IMG/VR virus record: IMGVR_UViG_3300012665_001197
Location: 1-27,433 of that record
DNA from: a virus
Lineage: Duplodnaviria; Caudoviricetes
Reading direction: 5' to 3' (one strand)
DNA length: 27,433 bases
Shown: piece by piece, positions 2,771 through 11,749 of the stretch
How the letters are laid out: every line of letters begins with the position of its first letter
Position numbering within the stretch: position 1 is the first letter of the stretch
Program-made: the position numbers and the translations under genes
The notes under the pieces: generated by a model
The model's database searches: none
What the model saw: the letters and a program-made list of their open reading frames with translations, nothing else
What the model was told of the DNA's origin: nothing

Positions 2771-3349
2771 CTAGTTGTTAAACAATAGTGACTTAGATAT
2801 ATCTATGATATAAATTAGCCTTCTTTTATCAGTCTTATTATATGCACCATGCAATTCAGCATTATCAAATGCAAATAAGTCGGACCAATCCTGCTTTACA
2901 CCATCAACTTCCAGTGCAACATCACCTTCTGGTATGATTAATGGTATATGAATTCTTACTGTCTTGCGGGAACGATTCTCAATGTCCGCATGACTCTTAA
3001 TAACTCCTCCGGCATCCAATACACTATACCCACTACAACCCACATGACTAATATATTTTTGTGTTAGTGATGCAGCTGTTGGAAATATCATTCTCACTCT
3101 TGGTTGCAGAAAGAAATTGTGTTCTATGTTTTTTTCTGGTAATGAATATCGTAGGCCTTCTACTTTCCATACATCCTTTTCATGTTCATCCAAAATTGCT
3201 TCTGGATTGGATGCAGCATACGAAATACCACCACTAAAGGTTGTATCAAAATCTTTGTGGTATTCTAAAAATTCTTGTGTTAATTTAGGTGCCAATTCCA
3301 TTAACTCATCTGCTATGGAAATCTCACCTCTAGACCAAATTTTTTGCAT
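2771..3349 (-). CDS. aspartyl/asparaginyl beta-hydroxylase family Fe(II)/2OG oxygenase
   Basis: IKSHAD, RIHIPLIIP, FAFDN..LHGAYN...RRL; SD GGAG before ATG 3349. Confidence 0.8.
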   Translation of the reverse strand: MQKIWSRGEISIADELMELAPKLTQEFLEYHKDFDTTFSGGISYAASNPEAILDEHEKDVWKVEGLRYSLPEKNIEHNFFLQPRVRMIFPTAASLTQKYISHVGCSGYSVLDAGGVIKSHADIENRSRKTVRIHIPLIIPEGDVALEVDGVKQDWSDLFAFDNAELHGAYNKTDKRRLIYIIDISKSLLFNN

Positions 3350-3364
3350 TACTACTCCATTCAA

Positions 3365-3692: not shown

Positions 3693-4348
3693 CTGTTTTT
3701 GTGGTAATAATCAATTGCTTTAACTAGACCTTCAATGTGGTCTTGTGTTTTCTCTTTAAAAATCATTGGTTGTTCGTTGTCCACGGCCATAATAATTACC
3801 AAATCATCAATAGGCGTACCAACCAATTCTTCATACATCAATGCATATGCAGTACATTGCCAGAAATAATCCAAAATATCTTGACGTTTTTTAATCTTCT
3901 TTGATGTTTTAAAATCAATGACTGATAACTTACCTTCATACTCACCAATACAGTCAACACGGCCTGCCAATCCTAGTTGTGCAGACCACAATCCAACCTC
4001 TTGGTAGTGTATATTGTTGATTTTGTTTAGATATGGTTTGATTGATATGAACATCTCTTTGGCATCAGGCATAACATTACCTGGTGGTTTTGGTTCATTG
4101 TTCAAGTAATACTCACACATTGTGTGCATATTGGTACCACGTGATGTAGCTTGTCTGGAGATTTTGTTTGCAGTTTCTTCTCCAACTCTACGGCGCCATT
4201 CTAGGATGGACTGCTTTTTCTGAGCTCCCACCACTGTGGTCACTGATGGTAATTTTTTGCCATCTGGTGTGACATAATATCTTTTCCCATCAGGAAAAGT
4301 TTGAGATTCAATTTTTGGAATCTCTTTTGGTGGGCAATAAACGAACAT
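3689..4348 (-). CDS. PD-(D/E)XK exonuclease of T4-like phages
   Basis: LPSVTTV, RGT.MH, E......GRVDC, IDFKTS, Q..AYA motifs. Confidence 0.85.
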   Translation of the reverse strand: MFVYCPPKEIPKIESQTFPDGKRYYVTPDGKKLPSVTTVVGAQKKQSILEWRRRVGEETANKISRQATSRGTNMHTMCEYYLNNEPKPPGNVMPDAKEMFISIKPYLNKINNIHYQEVGLWSAQLGLAGRVDCIGEYEGKLSVIDFKTSKKIKKRQDILDYFWQCTAYALMYEELVGTPIDDLVIIMAVDNEQPMIFKEKTQDHIEGLVKAIDYYHKNS

Positions 4349-5865
4349 TATAATCCTAACTTTAAGTTTTTATATTCAAGGATAGTTTGATCCGCTTCTT
4401 CGATTTTTCTATTTAAAAAAGTTTTATCAAATGTTCCATCAATGATATCTTTCACATCAACTCCCATACCAACCAATTCAAATACATCATGGTTGATACT
4501 GACGCCTTTGTTTGCATTTCCATAAATTGATTTGCCTTTAGCAATACGCAATTCTTCTGTTTCTAAATTTAGTAATGTTGTGAGTTTTCTTGCAGTAAGA
4601 TAATTCATATACTTACTTTTCCACATCATCATATTACTATCATCATTATTGTATCTAGGATCATCATCGTTTGCCGATAAAACATACTCACCCTTAGTCA
4701 TTTCTGTATAACCCCATTTGTCATATTCTTTTTCGAATTCACTCAAACGACTTACAGAATTTTTTCTGATAACCAAAGGCCACCAATCCCAATTATCAAA
4801 GACTTCAAAATTTTGTTCCAACAAAATCTTCTGACTATTATAAACACTAGACAATGGTTCACCTGGTAATCCACAAATCATGCCTGTATATGTATAGACC
4901 GGTTTATATCTTTTCAACTCTCTAATGGCTGCAAATTGTCTTTCATTATCTAGTCCTTTACCAATTGCTTTCTTTGCTTCTGGATGAAAAGTTTCCAAAC
5001 CAAATGTGGCTGCAACCAAACCAGTATCAGCCAACATAGGTATCGTTTCTGGAAAGGCCTCAATCAAGTCTGCACGTAGAAAGGCTGTGTATGTAATTTT
5101 AACACCACTCTTTGCAATTGCTTCTGCAACATAATCCAATTTTACCACATTATCATTGAATGTATCATCATTAAACCAATAGTTATTGACACCAAACATT
5201 TCGTAGTTTCTACGCAATTCATCCGCTAGGTTATCAACATGACGAATGTAATCATTCTTCTTTTTACCCAATAATGGGAACGCACAGAAACGGCATCTGA
5301 AAATACAACCTCTACTAATTTCAATAGGCAAGAAATTGTTTTTGATTAAGTCGCTTTCCAACCATTTGATAGACAAGTCACTATCATCATTTTTATACGC
5401 CATTTCAGCATTAATAGAAAGTGTACCTTTGTATGGTACCCACTTCAAATCATCCAAACGTTTCTTGGTTAAGAATTTTAGATAGTGTAAGACTGCTTCT
5501 TCGGCATAACCCCAAAATACTCTATCGACCTGAGTTAAATCGACACCATCAATTGGTGTTTCATTCCCACCAATAAGTGTCTTTACATGGGGATATTTCT
5601 CTTTAATGTGTTTGAATAAATGATTTAATTTGTCAAATGCATAGATGAACGTAATACTGATACCAACAAACAAAGTTTTTGGGCCAATAAACCTAGCACA
5701 GATTGTTTCAATTTCTTCTTCTGTAAAATTACCAAAGTAATCAACAACCTCAAGGTTATAACCATGTGGTTCTAAAAATGTTCTCAATCTTGCTGCACCA
5801 GCTGGTCGACTAATTGTTCTAGTTCGTTCCATGCCGGTAAAAACAATACCATGTGTATCTGTCAT
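4348..5865 (-). CDS. radical SAM protein with N-terminal cobalamin-binding-like domain (class B type)
   Basis: EISRGCIFRCRFC, DDTF, GLETF, GLPGE; N-terminal P.G..RL..FL...G..LEVVD / VGIS / K...P.VK..IGG pattern. Confidence 0.85.
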   Translation of the reverse strand: MTDTHGIVFTGMERTRTISRPAGAARLRTFLEPHGYNLEVVDYFGNFTEEEIETICARFIGPKTLFVGISITFIYAFDKLNHLFKHIKEKYPHVKTLIGGNETPIDGVDLTQVDRVFWGYAEEAVLHYLKFLTKKRLDDLKWVPYKGTLSINAEMAYKNDDSDLSIKWLESDLIKNNFLPIEISRGCIFRCRFCAFPLLGKKKNDYIRHVDNLADELRRNYEMFGVNNYWFNDDTFNDNVVKLDYVAEAIAKSGVKITYTAFLRADLIEAFPETIPMLADTGLVAATFGLETFHPEAKKAIGKGLDNERQFAAIRELKRYKPVYTYTGMICGLPGEPLSSVYNSQKILLEQNFEVFDNWDWWPLVIRKNSVSRLSEFEKEYDKWGYTEMTKGEYVLSANDDDPRYNNDDSNMMMWKSKYMNYLTARKLTTLLNLETEELRIAKGKSIYGNANKGVSINHDVFELVGMGVDVKDIIDGTFDKTFLNRKIEEADQTILEYKNLKLGL

Positions 5866-5868
5866 AAT

Positions 5869-6663
5869 TTAATAGAGTTCAAAATCTCTGATTTTTTTAG
5901 TTACGTATTTTGCTCTGATGGCTTCGAAAAAATCAATATCTTCTTCCGTTAATTCGGGTTCATCAATTTTTTCTCTCATGCCTCTAACATAATTTAACAT
6001 CTGTTCAAAATCACCTTCATATTTAAAAAATTTGGTTACTTTCTTTGTATCATATGCATCCATGATAAGGTGATATCTATCCTCATCGGAATCATTTCTA
6101 ATTTGATGCCATTGATTGACCCAAAGAATCCAAACACCACCGTCAGCAGGCATATGTAAATTCATACCTTGACAAATATGTACACATTTTTCGTTTGTGA
6201 AAAGTGGTATGTGAATACGTGCCATATATTCTTCTTCTGTTGCATCTCTATGCACTAAACTTTTTGAGTGTGCCTTTAAACAGGTAATTCTAGCCCTTGT
6301 TGGATAAAATCCCATTTCACGTATGTCATCCATAACCTTTTTGATTTCACCAACATAAGCTTCAGTTGGTTTGTCGTGTTCTAATCCATGTGAAATGTTA
6401 AAGTGCTTGTAGGCTTTACAAATCAATTCTTCAGTTGGTAAAAATGATTCTAATGATTGTCCTTTTTCCAACTGAATTGCTTCCCATCCACCAGTCCATG
6501 TTGCTTCTTTGCATAGTATACTCCAACCACCAAAACCATTGTATTTTGGTGTTTCATATTCTTCACCTTGAATAACTTGGTCACCTAAAGTAAAAACACT
6601 ATCTCTCACTTCTTGTTTTAATTTTTCAATGTCCACTGTATAGTCTAATTTTTCGAAAAACAT
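5869..6663 (-). CDS. aspartyl/asparaginyl beta-hydroxylase family oxygenase
   Basis: RAR...L......VHRD, RIHIPL.TN, H.PADG, H...N....RYHL. Confidence 0.8.
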   Translation of the reverse strand: MFFEKLDYTVDIEKLKQEVRDSVFTLGDQVIQGEEYETPKYNGFGGWSILCKEATWTGGWEAIQLEKGQSLESFLPTEELICKAYKHFNISHGLEHDKPTEAYVGEIKKVMDDIREMGFYPTRARITCLKAHSKSLVHRDATEEEYMARIHIPLFTNEKCVHICQGMNLHMPADGGVWILWVNQWHQIRNDSDEDRYHLIMDAYDTKKVTKFFKYEGDFEQMLNYVRGMREKIDEPELTEEDIDFFEAIRAKYVTKKIRDFELY

Positions 6664-6673
6664 TTCTTATCCT

Positions 6674-7345
6674 TTATAAGTTTCCAGTTTCTTTTAGCAT
6701 ATCATACACTTGACCATAATCATAATATCTGGTTCTAAGTGCAAATGCCTTTCTGAGTTTTGCTTCGCCACCTAATGGTTCCACATTGTGTGGTACTCTT
6801 ACGTCCAACATATATGCTTCCATAGGTTGTGCAACAAAAGATCCAATTTCATGAACATCATCAAAAGAATATACCGCATCAACATATGTTATTTCTTCAC
6901 AGGTTGGCATATTCTGTTTTTCAGCCACAAACTCTTTAACCCTAGTTTTCAATTCTTCAACATTAACATTTTGGTCTACAATCGTTCCATCATCAACACC
7001 AAGGTGTCGGTCTTCTTCTGTTTTCCATGAGTTTGCTTGAGGTTTTGCCTTAAAGAAAACTGTTCTATAGTTTTGTGGGTCATAATAAAAATTGATTGTT
7101 GTTATAAAATCATTATCAACGTGTGGTAACAACAAACTATTAATTGACATTCTCGTCACCTGAAAATCTTTCCAGTATCTTTCGGGAATAACTTTATACA
7201 GTTTTTCTAATTCTGGTTCAGGTGTCCAAATAGTATTGTGTCTAACTCCCAATCCATATTTGCCTGCAAATGAATCTGCAATTCCTTGAGGAATTATGGT
7301 ATGCATCATATACTCATAATTGTGTTTTAGTTTAACGAACGACAT
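6674..7345 (-). CDS. putative Fe(II)/2OG (cupin-fold) oxygenase
   Basis: LLPHVD...INFY ... LDV.VPHNV ... R (HxD...H facial triad). Confidence 0.65.
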   Translation of the reverse strand: MSFVKLKHNYEYMMHTIIPQGIADSFAGKYGLGVRHNTIWTPEPELEKLYKVIPERYWKDFQVTRMSINSLLLPHVDNDFITTINFYYDPQNYRTVFFKAKPQANSWKTEEDRHLGVDDGTIVDQNVNVEELKTRVKEFVAEKQNMPTCEEITYVDAVYSFDDVHEIGSFVAQPMEAYMLDVRVPHNVEPLGGEAKLRKAFALRTRYYDYGQVYDMLKETGNL

Positions 7346-7862
7346 TATTGGTTTCCTTTAACATTTCAATTACGTCCTCATACTTATGAACAAAGGTTCC
7401 CAAAGTTATTGCTTTACGCAAATTAAATTCACCCTTAACGCCATGTATTTGACTTACATCAAGTAACCAAACTTCATAGTCTTTTGCCACAAAACTACCA
7501 ACTTCAATTAAATCATCTTCAAAGTATATATGACCATCGGTTTGATTCTCAACCTGTACAGTATTTGGTTTATCAACTTTTGGTTTGTAAAAGGTTGTTG
7601 TGCAACCTTCTGTTTGAAAGTAAAAATTTATTGATGAAATAATCTCGGTATCTGTATGTGGTGGGATTATACAATCAATTGTCATTACTGTCAAGTGGAA
7701 ATCCTGCCAATACCTTTTTGGCAAAACACCATAAATTTTTTCAGCCTCTGGTGACCATATCTTCTTATAGTCAATACCTTTACCATCAACTTTAAAAGTT
7801 TTTAATTGGTCGGTAATTGCATATAGTGGTTTTTCGAAAGATTTTTCAAGTTTGGTAAACAT
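7332..7862 (-). CDS. putative Fe(II)/2OG (cupin-fold) oxygenase, paralog of neighbour
   Basis: IPPHTD...INFY ... LDV.QIHGV ... RKA; TAATG overlap with upstream gene. Confidence 0.65.
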   Translation of the reverse strand: MFTKLEKSFEKPLYAITDQLKTFKVDGKGIDYKKIWSPEAEKIYGVLPKRYWQDFHLTVMTIDCIIPPHTDTEIISSINFYFQTEGCTTTFYKPKVDKPNTVQVENQTDGHIYFEDDLIEVGSFVAKDYEVWLLDVSQIHGVKGEFNLRKAITLGTFVHKYEDVIEMLKETNNVVR

Positions 7863-8566
7863 TATTTCCATTCTTTAATCTTTGACATACGACCTGCCCA
7901 AGATTTCAAAATTACCGTATTCTGTGCATTTTTATCTACCACTTTTCTCAGGTCTGTAGACAATGAAATGCGTAGGTCATCAGATTTGTTTTCATCAACA
8001 CCGTGTAAGACATAATTAGGGAAAAAAATCAAACGACCCTCAACTGGTTTGAATCTTCGTTCACGTAAATTTGGTGTGCTACTCAAAGTGTTATTTAACC
8101 AATCAATAGCATGTGCAGAATCAAACGCCACAAGGTCACCACAACCTTCTTTGGCCTTAATATAGTATGTTGCTGCAATTGCAGATTCAGTGTGACCATG
8201 CACCTCTAGGCGTTCTCCAGGTTCACGCACATTGACCCAACCCATAAAGTGTTCGCAACCACGAATGTTCAACATCCTCAACTGTGGAATATTCTGAACA
8301 ATTTTCTTGGTTACTATGTCTATAATTTCTTGTTTGAGTATATCTAGATTTGGACGGCTGTAGTCCCATATACTGTTGCTTGGGTCCTTATCTTTACCCA
8401 ATGCGATATCTTTACCAATACCATAAATTTCATCCAATAGAGTTTCATTGAATTGCTCATCAAATTTGGTTTGCACTTCCCAGATTGGACTTTGCCAAAA
8501 CATATTCTGTGCATTTTGATACCAATGATAGCGGTCCCTATCTTCTTTTGTCATAATATTTTGCAT
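7862..8566 (-). CDS. 2OG-Fe(II) oxygenase (TIGR02466-like)
   Basis: WVNV..PG....VHGH, YY, P.EG.LIFFP.Y..HGV..N.....RIS.S. Confidence 0.8.
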   Translation of the reverse strand: MQNIMTKEDRDRYHWYQNAQNMFWQSPIWEVQTKFDEQFNETLLDEIYGIGKDIALGKDKDPSNSIWDYSRPNLDILKQEIIDIVTKKIVQNIPQLRMLNIRGCEHFMGWVNVREPGERLEVHGHTESAIAATYYIKAKEGCGDLVAFDSAHAIDWLNNTLSSTPNLRERRFKPVEGRLIFFPNYVLHGVDENKSDDLRISLSTDLRKVVDKNAQNTVILKSWAGRMSKIKEWK

Positions 8567-8575
8567 AATAAAAAA

Positions 8576-8953
8576 TCAATAGTTTTGTTTTTCAAACCAT
8601 TCTTTAAATTCTCTTAGGTGATTCAGTTTCAACTCATATTCTTCATCAGTATAATCTTCATCTCTTGGTAAAGATATGAAATATTCATATTCTTCTTTCG
8701 GATTTCTCACTCTTTCTTCATTCCAACCTGGATCAGCAAAATTTATAATATGTTGATCCATCAGTTTATCTATAGTTTCTCTAAAATGATATGACATATA
8801 GAAAAACCTTTCTTTTTGTTCTTCCGTAAGACGGTTAATCCTTTCGATATGATTTTTTTTCATATAATTTGTTAGAACAAAAAAATCATATAAAATATTA
8901 TCACCTTCAAAATTTTTTATGGTTTGTTGGTATGTATAGCTATATTCTTTCAT
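8576..8953 (-). CDS. hypothetical protein in modification cluster
   Basis: ATGA overlap with upstream stop; helical, charged and aromatic-rich. Confidence 0.65.
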   Translation of the reverse strand: MKEYSYTYQQTIKNFEGDNILYDFFVLTNYMKKNHIERINRLTEEQKERFFYMSYHFRETIDKLMDQHIINFADPGWNEERVRNPKEEYEYFISLPRDEDYTDEEYELKLNHLREFKEWFEKQNY

Positions 8954-9243
8954 CTTTTGTCCAACCATATTTTATAATTTCGTACAAGTTCGTTGTCAAC
9001 ACCATCTCTTAATAATTTTGGTAAAAAGATAGATGATTTTAACAAACCATCACCGTCAAGGACCGCATGAACATCTTCAAAATCTGTTAGCAATTCATAG
9101 ACACGCTCTTTTTCTTCCTGCGTCATGTTATTAAATACAGTTAAACTAACAGTATTGTAAAAATTAGCTAAATGTTCATCAACCAAATCCCCAACAGGAT
9201 TCATTAAAACTTTAACCGGTCTTTTAGTGGAATACGTTGGCAT
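8950..9243 (-). CDS. hypothetical protein in modification cluster
   Basis: TGATG overlap with the Cys-rich gene stop. Confidence 0.65.
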   Translation of the reverse strand: MPTYSTKRPVKVLMNPVGDLVDEHLANFYNTVSLTVFNNMTQEEKERVYELLTDFEDVHAVLDGDGLLKSSIFLPKLLRDGVDNELVRNYKIWLDKR

Positions 9244-10265
9244 CAAACTACCTTTTTATTTGGTATAAATTTCTCAATAAAACGGCCTAGTTCGGCAATA
9301 AGTTTAAACATAACGAAAATTACAACAAGGCCCGCACCTTTTAGGAAACCAGGTTCTTTCTTACTTGGTCCAAACCAACGTTGCCATACACCAATAACTT
9401 TACAGATTGGTATACCAAATGCAAACATCATCTTACCTGTAAGACTACCCGTTTCTTTTTCGCCCATGATGTATGCCATTTCTTCAGCCCAAGGTGTTGC
9501 AATATCATGTGCCCATGTAATAGACCACTTCTTAGCAGCTTCACTGAATTCTTCATCTGACATCCAAGGCATCATCTTAGGACCTTTGCCGTCCATCCAA
9601 TCAACAACAATCTCAGCCCATGCACGATAACCATTGTAGATATCTGGATTGGTTTGTATCAATCTTTCACCAAATGCTTGGTCTGCCTCAAATATGTTTT
9701 TCTTCATTAAACCAAGGTCAAACAACTTGGTACAAATAATCTTAGAACAATTACAATTAATATTGAAACAGTTTTGGTTAGCATTACAGTTATATACTGG
9801 TGCTGTGGCCAATTGACAATTACCGGCTTGCAACCATTTGTTTCTATCACAATTTACACAATTTGCCAAAGCAGAACAATTTGCTGTTGCTGAACAATTA
9901 ACTGGAGTTGAACCAGTTTTAGTGTTTGTTGCAGTAGAACATTGTCCGGTTGATTGGGCATTACAATTTAGTGTTGCGCCGTTGTTGGAGTTGTTACAGT
10001 TGCCGGCATCATTTTTCTGATAGTATTTTAAACCACCACGGAATACATCTAAATTTGGTTGTGATGGTCTCAGTGGATTTGGTGGTGTCACAGCATTAGT
10101 ACCAGCTGGTACAACAGGCACAAGACCACTACAGTTGAGTGTAGTGGTACCGTCAGGTTTAAGATACGTGTTTATGAAATTGAAATCAACTGAGGTGTTG
10201 GTTGCTCCAACTTCTGCATTTATGTTTGAAACTCCAATCGCACTATTTTTATCTGGTGTTGCCAT
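9243..10265 (-). CDS. Asn-Cys-repeat protein with C-terminal KIICT domain; candidate substrate/precursor of neighbouring enzymes
   Basis: 13 Cys before residue 175, 12 of them as N-C dipeptides; C-terminal helical domain ending in hydrophobic segments. Confidence 0.75.
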   Translation of the reverse strand: MATPDKNSAIGVSNINAEVGATNTSVDFNFINTYLKPDGTTTLNCSGLVPVVPAGTNAVTPPNPLRPSQPNLDVFRGGLKYYQKNDAGNCNNSNNGATLNCNAQSTGQCSTATNTKTGSTPVNCSATANCSALANCVNCDRNKWLQAGNCQLATAPVYNCNANQNCFNINCNCSKIICTKLFDLGLMKKNIFEADQAFGERLIQTNPDIYNGYRAWAEIVVDWMDGKGPKMMPWMSDEEFSEAAKKWSITWAHDIATPWAEEMAYIMGEKETGSLTGKMMFAFGIPICKVIGVWQRWFGPSKKEPGFLKGAGLVVIFVMFKLIAELGRFIEKFIPNKKVV

Positions 10266-10294
10266 TTTTCTCTATCTTTAAAAGTTGTTATTGT

Positions 10295-10301
10295 TATTTA
10301 G
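10295..10301 (-). promoter_or_regulatory. late-promoter variant CTAAATA
   Basis: overlaps the rSAM stop codon, 30 nt upstream of ATG 10265. Confidence 0.5.
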
Positions 10302-11749
10302 GTTTCTAAACGAGATTTACCATACACCGCAACATCATCAACTGTACCAACAATTTCTTTAACCACCTTGATTGGTATGATTTTTTTCTGTTTTTCTTCT
10401 TCGTGTTTGAAAACGGTACCAAAAACATCTTGTCTATCAAGTGGCAACGTATCACTTTTAATGATTGATGGTGTGTAACCATTTGTTATCATAGTGAATG
10501 CTGCAGCAAACAAAGCCACATTATCTGAATATGCATTGGCACACGAAATGTCCCAAAATTTTTCGTCCAAGAACATACATGCACCTTTACACATATGCAA
10601 TACTGGACATTCTGGACATTCTTTACGATTAGACCAATGTGTGACAGATTTCAACTCAACATTTGAGTAGTCATCTAACGTGCCGCCATGATGTGATTCA
10701 CCGTTCTTTGATATTTCCAAAGAACTTACGTTTTGACAAGTCATTACGTTACCACGTAGGTCAACCGAAATGGTATGTTCGTCATCCATACCACATTTTT
10801 GGCCCAAATATTTAGATTCTATATGATTCAAAACACGATTTGAAAAATCTTGTATTTTACCCAATTGGCCTATAAAACCTATTTTAGTACCGTTGGCATA
10901 TAATTCACCAAAAGCACGTTGTCTAAAATCAAAATGTTCTTGTTTTGTAATTAGTGAGTTTGAAATACCTTCTTCATCATAGGCATCAACCAATGATCCT
11001 TCACCAAGTACAACATTTTCATCGCCAGTAAGATTTACAAACCAATCATAAATTTCTTTTCTACTTTGGTTTTTAGAATTCAACATAGCGTTAAAACTAA
11101 ATGGTTTACCTAGTCTTGTTTGCATACGATAGAAACCGATAATACGTTCTTTTTGTTCAGGATCATCAAATGGATCAGGACCACGAACAAATTGACCAGG
11201 ACCGTCATGTGAAATTGACACACCAAAATCCATCATCATTAACCAATCAATGATTTCATCTGTTAATATGGAACCGTTGGTGATAATACTAAACCTTGGT
11301 TTGGTTTTCCAATCCTTGAATTTCTCTGCAATGGCCTCTGCCAAAGGTTTCATGGTTTTCCAATAAACCAGTGGTTCACCACCCCAAAATTCAATTCTCA
11401 AACCAACATCTTCATCAAAATGCAAAACTTCCAACTTTTCCATAAAAGCATCGATATCTTTTTTGGATGTTTCCGGTTGACGCTCGACAAACTTTTGTGA
11501 ACAATAATCACACGAATAATTACAACTCAAACCCATTTGAATTTTTAAATGGCTGATTAATTTAGATTTTTTGAGTGGTCGATTTTTATCGAAAGCCTTA
11601 TAAGGCTTTTCCAAAACGTCCCATCTTTGTTCTTCTGGATATTCAAAAATGTCACCATTAGAATTTTTCAACACATTGGCCATGTTGTCATAGAAAAAAA
11701 CTTGTTTATCACCATCAGCAATTCTTGTGGCATGAATTTCAAAAATCAT
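10298..11749 (-). CDS. radical SAM/SPASM domain protein (peptide/protein maturase type)
   Basis: CNYSCDYC, FWGGEP, ITNG, SISHDG; SPASM motifs KCG...VDLRGNVMTC and CPECPVLHMCKGAC...C. Confidence 0.9.
   Translation of the reverse strand: MIFEIHATRIADGDKQVFFYDNMANVLKNSNGDIFEYPEEQRWDVLEKPYKAFDKNRPLKKSKLISHLKIQMGLSCNYSCDYCSQKFVERQPETSKKDIDAFMEKLEVLHFDEDVGLRIEFWGGEPLVYWKTMKPLAEAIAEKFKDWKTKPRFSIITNGSILTDEIIDWLMMMDFGVSISHDGPGQFVRGPDPFDDPEQKERIIGFYRMQTRLGKPFSFNAMLNSKNQSRKEIYDWFVNLTGDENVVLGEGSLVDAYDEEGISNSLITKQEHFDFRQRAFGELYANGTKIGFIGQLGKIQDFSNRVLNHIESKYLGQKCGMDDEHTISVDLRGNVMTCQNVSSLEISKNGESHHGGTLDDYSNVELKSVTHWSNRKECPECPVLHMCKGACMFLDEKFWDISCANAYSDNVALFAAAFTMITNGYTPSIIKSDTLPLDRQDVFGTVFKHEEEKQKKIIPIKVVKEIVGTVDDVAVYGKSRLET

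Follow-up and report, generated by a model that had tools for sequence, protein, structure and literature searches.

Several of the systems closest to the locus described here have a radical SAM enzyme that joins a Cys sulfur to another residue. The ranthisynthases PapB and CteB work on CX3D-type spacing, and CteB-like thioether-forming enzymes are thought to hold the substrate Cys at an open site of auxiliary cluster I. In enteropeptin the sulfur is linked to the C-alpha of the adjacent, Arg-derived residue of a tiny peptide, and polytheonamide-type (proteusin) systems use an epimerase and an Asn N-methyltransferase. To our knowledge, no enzymatic cross-linking has been described for the gp38 adhesins or for tail fibres processed by S74 or Hint domains. 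With the streptococcal RaS-RiPP pair NxxcB/NxxcA, in which NxxcB joins the Cys sulfur to the C-beta of Asn (PMC13361665), this locus shares a SPASM radical SAM enzyme and, as proposed below, Cys-to-Asn C-beta chemistry. There, the acceptor lies three residues upstream in a short precursor peptide from an Rgg/SHP-linked streptococcal cluster, whereas here the Asn is adjacent, the pair is repeated about 10-20 times, and the substrate is a phage protein of up to 650 aa (340 aa in the present T4-like phage). SPASM enzymes also put several thioethers into whole proteins encoded next door, as described for QhpD/QhpC and CrpC/CrpA (PMC13692751). Those substrates differ from ours in being a cellular enzyme subunit or an archaeal Cys-rich protein, QhpD uses Asp/Glu acceptors, and the words "phage" and "Asn" are absent from the main text of the CrpC paper (PMC13692751). 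A further precedent is the small thioether ring made by the radical SAM enzyme of the enteropeptin/KgrC system (PMC13361665). Phage radical-SAM genes are mentioned without a substrate in passages of two papers (PMC7029224, PMC12801897).

The stretch of DNA analysed, referred to as the window (27,433 nucleotides), is a fragment of a T4-like phage with Pfam and PHROG matches to the gp59 helicase loader, PhoH, rIIA and rIIB. A minus-strand cassette (4348-11749) lies between PhoH and an exonuclease, outside the tail module, and comprises the genes listed in Table 1. A contig from run X1 joins 4340 straight to 11836 at about 85% identity and represents a relative without the entire cassette; the cassette behaves as one unit. 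The 2OG oxygenase and the AspH-family gene are present in most T4-like cassette loci, both small ORFs occur within the cassette of close relatives, and the B12-type radical SAM gene is missing from many loci (for example L045, L054 and L066). Searches of Pfam and NCBIfam found neither a protease nor a transporter among the cassette genes, and no match to the arginase that is a trait of the enteropeptin system. No epimerase or Asn N-methyltransferase was named among the cassette matches; the B12 radical SAM enzyme is present and has no assigned family. Plasmids gave no match at E 1e-40. Species genomes gave a single match with a query that reaches close relatives only, a 3.7-kb contig of a MAG that is probably phage DNA. 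Contigs of one RNA run cover 9350-9614 with two differences, a region that leaves the tract outside and does not demonstrate expression. Outside the cassette, the ORFs at 2771-3364 and 2219-2761 include a second AspH-family gene and an ORF with a signal-peptide-like start, a porin-like look and no family match; both are conserved in close relatives.

Table 1. Features of the Asn-Cys cassette, in window coordinates.
Feature	Position	Strand	Remarks
B12-type radical SAM enzyme	4348..5865	-	Radical_SAM and B12-binding matches; NCBIfam scores all below cut-off; optional cassette end
AspH-family (Asp/Asn beta-hydroxylase-like) oxygenase	5869..6663	-	PF05118, E 1.1e-9; accessory tailoring candidate
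Paralogue of the 7332..7871 ORF	6674..7345	-	Same HxD...H...R motif; cross-matches at about 30% identity; no Pfam match
Probable oxygenase-fold protein	7332..7871	-	HxD...H...R motif read from the translation; no Pfam or PDB match; co-travels with the cassette
2OG-Fe(II) oxygenase	7862..8566	-	PF13759, E 9.7e-17; accessory tailoring candidate
Small ORF, 130 aa	8576..8968	-	Fast-evolving; 26-52% identity in close loci; no family match (Pfam, NCBIfam, PHROG)
Small ORF, 98 aa	8950..9246	-	Fast-evolving; 31-53% identity in close loci; no family match (Pfam, NCBIfam, PHROG)
Asn-Cys protein, 340 aa	9243..10265	-	Three parts: N-terminal domain, Asn-Cys tract, C-terminal domain
C-terminal helical "KIIC" domain (our label), residues 175-340	9243..9743	-	Modular; confidently modelled
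Asn-Cys tract, residues 81-174	9744..10025	-	11 NC and 1 QC; two segments with conserved headers; ends NCNCS
N-terminal helical domain, about 80 aa	10026..10265	-	Common to Gly-rich phage proteins; likely gp38-adhesin-type fibre-tip anchor
T4-like late-promoter motif TAAATA	10295..10300	-	35 nt before the Asn-Cys gene start; overlaps the enzyme stop codon
Radical SAM/SPASM enzyme, 483 aa	10298..11749	-	Predicted maturase of the Asn-Cys protein; Pfam Radical_SAM, E 4.5e-10; phrog_1802

The initial annotation had described a strict Asn-Cys code in this protein, listing Cys at residues 45, 90, 101, 109, 124, 130, 136, 139, 150, 160, 166, 171 and 173. The translation of 9243-10265 (-) agrees with each of these positions: Asn precedes 12 of the 13, and Gln precedes C109. 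The protein has 15 Cys in all, the list having omitted C178 and C288, which are both Ile-Cys and both within the C-terminal domain. The region to which the code had been assigned, 9747..10001, corresponds to residues 89-173 and holds 12 Cys (11 NC and 1 QC), leaving C45 outside. This last Cys is part of an unconserved insertion, with Cys in 1 of 62 aligned rows, and the extra NC pair (residues 44-45, window 10131-10136) is peculiar to this genome. Shuffling residues 81-174 gave a mean of 2.8 NC pairs and a maximum of 9, and none of 200,000 shuffles reached the observed 11. Modelled as an unmodified monomer, the tract is mostly below pLDDT 50, which fits, without proving, a need for staples.

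The Asn-Cys protein has 445 relatives at E 0.001 among 2,449 candidates (120 among the matches listed). Conservation was scored on 85 distinct family members from fetched loci, reduced to 64 at 85% similarity. The residue before Cys was Asn at 783 of 1,015 Cys, followed by Ala (107), Gln (67), Asp (40), Val (8), Ile (4), Cys (3), Thr (2), Gly (1) and Ser (0), against a background composition of Asn 28.5%, Thr 10.0%, Gly 8.8% and Ser 8.1%; since they derive from some 19 conserved columns in related proteins, these counts are not independent of one another, and the aligner favours NC-on-NC pairing. Most of the Gln and Ala before Cys come from three columns. At seven of nine variable columns Asn was lost together with Cys, one column kept Asn without Cys (18/23), and one was an Ala-Cys site. 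All four Asn/Cys codon pairs are used (275/225/163/84), so the constraint acts on the protein, and a DNA-repeat artefact as the source of the code was ruled out on the same ground. The alignment proposed as a check of the code gave the expected outcome: NC is kept, spacer lengths vary, and the headers and terminal NCNC are fixed. Indeed, the two similar segment headers are conserved as well as present (Y81 56/62, G88 62/62, C90 62/62, L145 61/62, Q146 62/62). The 6-residue periodicity is a local feature (C124/130/136 and C160/166) and no family rule, since Cys is found at +/-6 in 20-24% of cases, at +/-4 in 22-25% and at +/-2 in 32-34%. The suggested NX5N spacing of polytheonamide clamps did not hold up; position 123 is Gln in 47/62 and Asn in 11/62, and N129 is Asn in 36/61.

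The association of the code with the upstream enzyme was examined from both sides. By enzyme similarity 160 loci were collected, which form 63 clusters at 90% identity; most of them encode enzymes 58-87% identical to that of the window, and one search was restricted to the best 80 of 543 matches. A same-strand ORF with at least four NC pairs was present in 154/160 loci and 59/63 clusters; of the four clusters missed, two are contig ends and two have fibres with fewer pairs, 3 NC in a JWF-like fibre and 2 NC and a QC in the RSP15 fibre. Conversely, a scan of viral DNA (24/64 parts) for sequence encoding NC(N/D)CNCNC yielded at least 121 loci, 80 of them with flanks. The motif lay at least 40 residues into an ORF in 52 of the 80, which were taken as gene-like carriers, and the other 28 were non-gene matches. 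A match to the enzyme profile was found within 5 kb of 50/52 gene-like carriers and of 0/28 non-gene matches. These matches scored 27-842 bits, the weak ones being distant subfamilies or a cut gene, and the two carriers without a match were a contig end and an unrelated giant-virus protein. A Pfam radical SAM gene was present in 22/22 scanned motif-first loci, and the motif was within 25 residues of the C-terminus in 49/52 gene-like carriers. No close relative of the enzyme was found at 11 loci that have the C-terminal domain only and no NC tract. At the level of predicted genes, a widespread pairing of enzyme and substrate on phage fibre-type proteins is real, and the enzyme very probably acts on the Asn-Cys tract. 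The initial proposal that N-C is the recognition motif of the neighbouring enzymes thus finds support for the radical-SAM/SPASM enzyme, to which the conserved code is tied by co-occurrence, and none for the oxygenases as a core component: a Pfam 2OG oxygenase is found in 6/22 loci with NC and radical SAM genes, and none is annotated beside the JWF enzyme.

The enzyme has exactly ten Cys, CxxxCxxC at 76/80/83 and the SPASM Cys 319, 338, 378, 381, 387, 391 and 403, all of which are invariant across an alignment of 17 sequences. Ahead of the radical SAM core, where the N-terminal RRE domain of ranthipeptide-type systems would lie, there are about 60 residues. The 7-Cys SPASM pattern is kept in 118/119 relatives, none of which has an eighth Cys within 15 residues upstream. 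A radical SAM core with a seven-Cys SPASM domain and a co-encoded Cys-rich substrate are traits of the ranthipeptide type (PapB, CteB, QhpD) that are present here. The best solved relative in the PDB is TigE (E 2e-16) and the second is CteB (E 6e-14); the seven SPASM Cys are common to TigE, CteB and SuiB (PMC10878394). The enzyme thus resembles the PapB/CteB ranthisynthases in its seven-Cys SPASM domain, its best NCBIfam score (PapB) and its second-best PDB match (CteB). It differs from them in scoring far below the NCBIfam cut-offs (PapB 80.6/340, QhpD-type 69.7/453, SCIFF maturase 54.1/425), in lacking their type of substrate spacing, and in its catalytic-proximity residues. At the six positions taken from PMC10288494 the enzyme has S84, W122, I156, S180, Q339 and N340 against F, F, T, S, H and Q in CteB, an identity of 1/6 that was measured against CteB only and mapped through the CteB alignment. 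The GYW motif, which ligates auxiliary cluster I in cyclopropyl synthases (PMC10878394), is absent from the enzyme sequence and from the alignment. Judged by its sequence, the enzyme would work like a RiPP maturase, and its scores place it in none of the named families.

The carriers of the code point to the tail. Besides the window family, 45 carriers in 17 clusters (by their last 130 residues) were found, and 6/19 proteins scanned had tail-fibre PHROG matches. In the cultured Achromobacter phage JWF, gp028 is a tail-module fibre with a Hint domain after its terminal NCNCDCNCNCS, and its gene lies two genes ahead of the enzyme gene; JWF carries a minimal version of the pairing. In RSP15, likewise cultured, gp048 is annotated as a side tail fibre within the tail module and has a short NC/QC tail at its end. 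The window protein matched no Pfam, NCBIfam or PHROG model, and two segments of it gave no tail-fibre PHROG match and no fibre family match (Pfam, PHROG). Its N-terminal domain was modelled at pLDDT 75-88 over residues 1-40 and 82-88 over 61-80 in the full protein, and poorly when modelled separately (pLDDT 52). No Pfam, PHROG or PDB match was found for this domain; a profile of it matched NC-free proteins, several of them Gly-rich, at E 4e-6 to 9e-3, and the nearest atlas model belongs to the GP38 cluster, at a TM of 0.35 that is under the bar. This weak structural lead likens the N-terminal module to that of the T-even gp38 adhesins, in which a polyglycine region takes the place of the Asn-Cys tract, and the domain is likely a fibre-tip anchor of that type. 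A cytochrome c match of the profile was rejected as a low-score repeat artefact.

The slot after the tract is occupied in the window family by the KIIC domain in 70/86 cases, by nothing in 14/86 and by Peptidase_S74 (chaperone of endosialidase in Pfam) in 2/86 (L310, L312). As in known processed tail fibres, S74 or Hint can stand behind the tract, Hint doing so in JWF gp028. S74 itself is a chaperone of trimeric fibres that cleaves itself off. The KIIC domain is also found on NC-free Gly-rich fibre-like proteins and on a gp5-like protein, and it forms the C-terminus of many unrelated structural-type phage proteins, where a Gly run or NCNCS precedes it (L020-L030, L111). Its fold had no PDB match at E 0.001, with a best Z of 6.4 to unrelated helical proteins. 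A role in folding or processing, after which it is removed, is likely, and it may represent a kind of processing domain not described before. A likeness to CFI-box-CTERM was considered and dropped, NCBIfam giving no support in 11 sequences. Family members without a C-terminal domain (L056, L060, L293, L296, L314) end in Ala-Cys runs or CxCW; in L056 and L060 the gene order is reversed, with the substrate before the enzyme.

Upstream of the gene, TAAATA, which we take to be the T4 late-promoter consensus, occurs within 60 nt in 41/62 homologues, against 3.4% of random 60-mers, and many family genes without it abut or overlap the end of the enzyme gene. Exact TATAAATA is at chance level in the window (2 against 1.78 expected), so only the position-specific count carries weight. 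Taken together, the carriers, the S74/KIIC context, TAAATA and the likeness of the N-terminal domain make it likely that the window protein is made late and is fibre-associated. It looks like a part of the virion rather than a free peptide precursor.

The reading that we favour, with moderate confidence, is that a late, adhesin-type fibre-tip protein has its Asn-Cys pairs cross-linked serially by the upstream enzyme. With the Cys of the substrate bound at the open coordination site of auxiliary cluster I, the enzyme would abstract a hydrogen atom from the residue preceding that Cys (usually Asn, at times Ala, Gln or Asp), most probably from its C-beta. A thioether would then form between the Cys sulfur and that residue, producing a small ring at each pair, iteratively. 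The C-terminal domain would aid folding and then be removed, as S74 and Hint domains in the same slot would be elsewhere, leaving the stapled (Asn-Cys)n end exposed. In the most tentative steps, the staples might make the tip stiff with no need of disulfides and influence how it binds its receptor, while the B12 enzyme and the oxygenases might contribute optional modifications, Asn hydroxylation for example; the biological role may be that of a rigid binding tip that resists reduction. That the product is a Cys thioether we consider probable, and a ring within the same dipeptide falls a little short of an even chance. The assignment to C-beta of the preceding residue rests on the strict -1 code, on the fact that this family accepts Ala, Gln, Asp and Val at that position but not Gly or Ser, and on the precedents of NxxcB, QhpD and CrpC; near-absence of Gly and Ser is what C-beta chemistry would require. 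Two findings run counter to it. The active-site profile is unlike that of CteB and the best solved relative, TigE, forms C-C bonds; and in unrelated carriers Gly precedes Cys in 7/156 cases, six of them in CQxC tracts of two loci that have two enzymes each.

The alternative that survives best, though we consider it unlikely, is that the enzyme acts on the tract and makes another product: distant or inter-chain links, a C-alpha (sactionine) ring, epimerisation, desaturation or C-C coupling. N-x-x-C registers, the spacing of the enzyme NxxcB that the initial annotation invoked, exist too, but only inside the (NC)n runs. Isolated Cys (n=274) argue otherwise, as they have Asn at -3 in 22% of cases (background 28.5%) and at -1 in 86%; at +4 the excess of Asn is modest (41%, with Asp at 7%). 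The thiomorpholine ring held by enteropeptins (PMC13361665) gives precedent for a different closure, and the catalytic-proximity profile, the cyclopropane synthase TigE as top PDB match and the failure of any NCBIfam maturase family to reach its cut-off all leave room for one. Gly and Ser, however, are virtually missing from -1 (1 and 0 of 1,015), and the enzyme lacks the TigE-type GYW motif.

A reading in which the fibre tip is a trimer whose Cys coordinate metal, or an Fe-S cluster, along its axis, and in which the enzyme has another or a supporting role, is improbable. The needle of the T4 long fibre does bind metal, through pairs of His, CxC spacing occurs at the very C-terminus of the fibres, and S74, which depends on a trimer, implies one in the two relatives that carry the fusion. 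Metal binding would leave unexplained both the co-occurrence with the SPASM radical enzyme (50/52 against 0/28) and the strict residue before each Cys, in proteins whose Cys number 11 to 23.

Slightly less probable again is a true RiPP precursor, from which the modified tract would be excised and, as a free peptide, target the host or competitors, as the term precursor in the initial annotation implied. Some carriers are indeed only 57-80 aa (L130, L142, L153, RP12), like ordinary peptide precursors. In the cultured jumbo phage RP12, an unannotated 64-aa ORF ending in an NC run (L110:1960-2154 (+), about NC_041911 82888-83082) lies directly before an accessory gene and three radical SAM genes, and resembles the small carriers L130, L138 and L153; where the RP12 paper names these enzymes, it does so by generic annotation only (PMC5468394). 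Several tailoring enzymes in a cassette that is here outside the tail module, and a C-terminal domain that ends in hydrophobic helices, would also suit such a precursor. Release of a peptide is nonetheless doubtful, since the long carriers mostly belong to the tail module and bear the tract at the fibre end, S74 fusions occur in the same family, and the cassette has no protease or transporter. Ordinary disulfides beside an incidental enzyme are scarcely credible: the protein is Cys-rich and probably extracellular in its working life, but the Cys number is odd in 29 and even in 33 of 62 homologues, making fixed disulfides unlikely, and the two-way link to the enzyme would be left aside.

Under the favoured reading of serial cross-linking, the oxygenases look accessory. 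Pfam 2OG oxygenases were found in the 6/22 distant loci above with 2-5 downstream genes scanned at each, and at least two more by profile or motif; profiles built from close homologues were too narrow for this purpose (4/50 distant loci matched), and Pfam was used instead. Being nearly constant in the T4-like clade and present in few distant loci, the oxygenases are best taken as optional tailoring.

No description of such an Asn-Cys/radical-SAM fibre system was found in the literature searched, which includes few of the subscription journals. The system probably represents a new form of RiPP-like cross-linking of proteins, and both its link and its class of substrate may prove to be new. More tentatively, and with the odds somewhat against it as a whole, several unrelated groups of tailed phages may have host-binding tips in which a radical SAM enzyme has turned adjacent Asn and Cys into a polymer of thioether rings. 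This would be a previously undescribed post-translational link, placed on a structural protein of the virion by a portable cassette that can serve any fibre end and is tuned by oxygenases. If so, phages would apply RiPP-type radical chemistry to their own particles, at the part that selects the host, and a substrate would be explained for a widespread phage radical-SAM family now annotated without one. For such fibre tips, the sequence by itself would not suffice for modelling or expression, and the known protein-stapling enzymes would be joined by one that works iteratively and recognises a two-letter code. Enzyme and substrate are two adjacent genes, which makes the question directly testable.

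Other Asn-Cys cassettes vary in their content. At four loci (L126, L148, L159, L182) small CQxC-repeat proteins followed by an NC tail have two radical SAM genes as flanking neighbours, and each enzyme may read a code of its own; L126 has an additional stand-alone Hint-like gene. A family of proteins of about 230-410 aa with no Pfam match follows the Asn-Cys fibre in 28/46 loci (L117, L118, L127, L140, L187 and others); it was not detected in the window cassette. In two loci (L092:9437-10866, L093:9446-10884) the enzyme gene and the Asn-Cys gene are separated by two inserted genes of about 240 aa, whose sequences show His-box motifs like those of acyl-CoA desaturases. A tryptophan-halogenase-like gene (L160:1297-2496) and a PLP enzyme with a dicarboxylate symporter (L158:5992-8161) lie within or beside two further cassettes.
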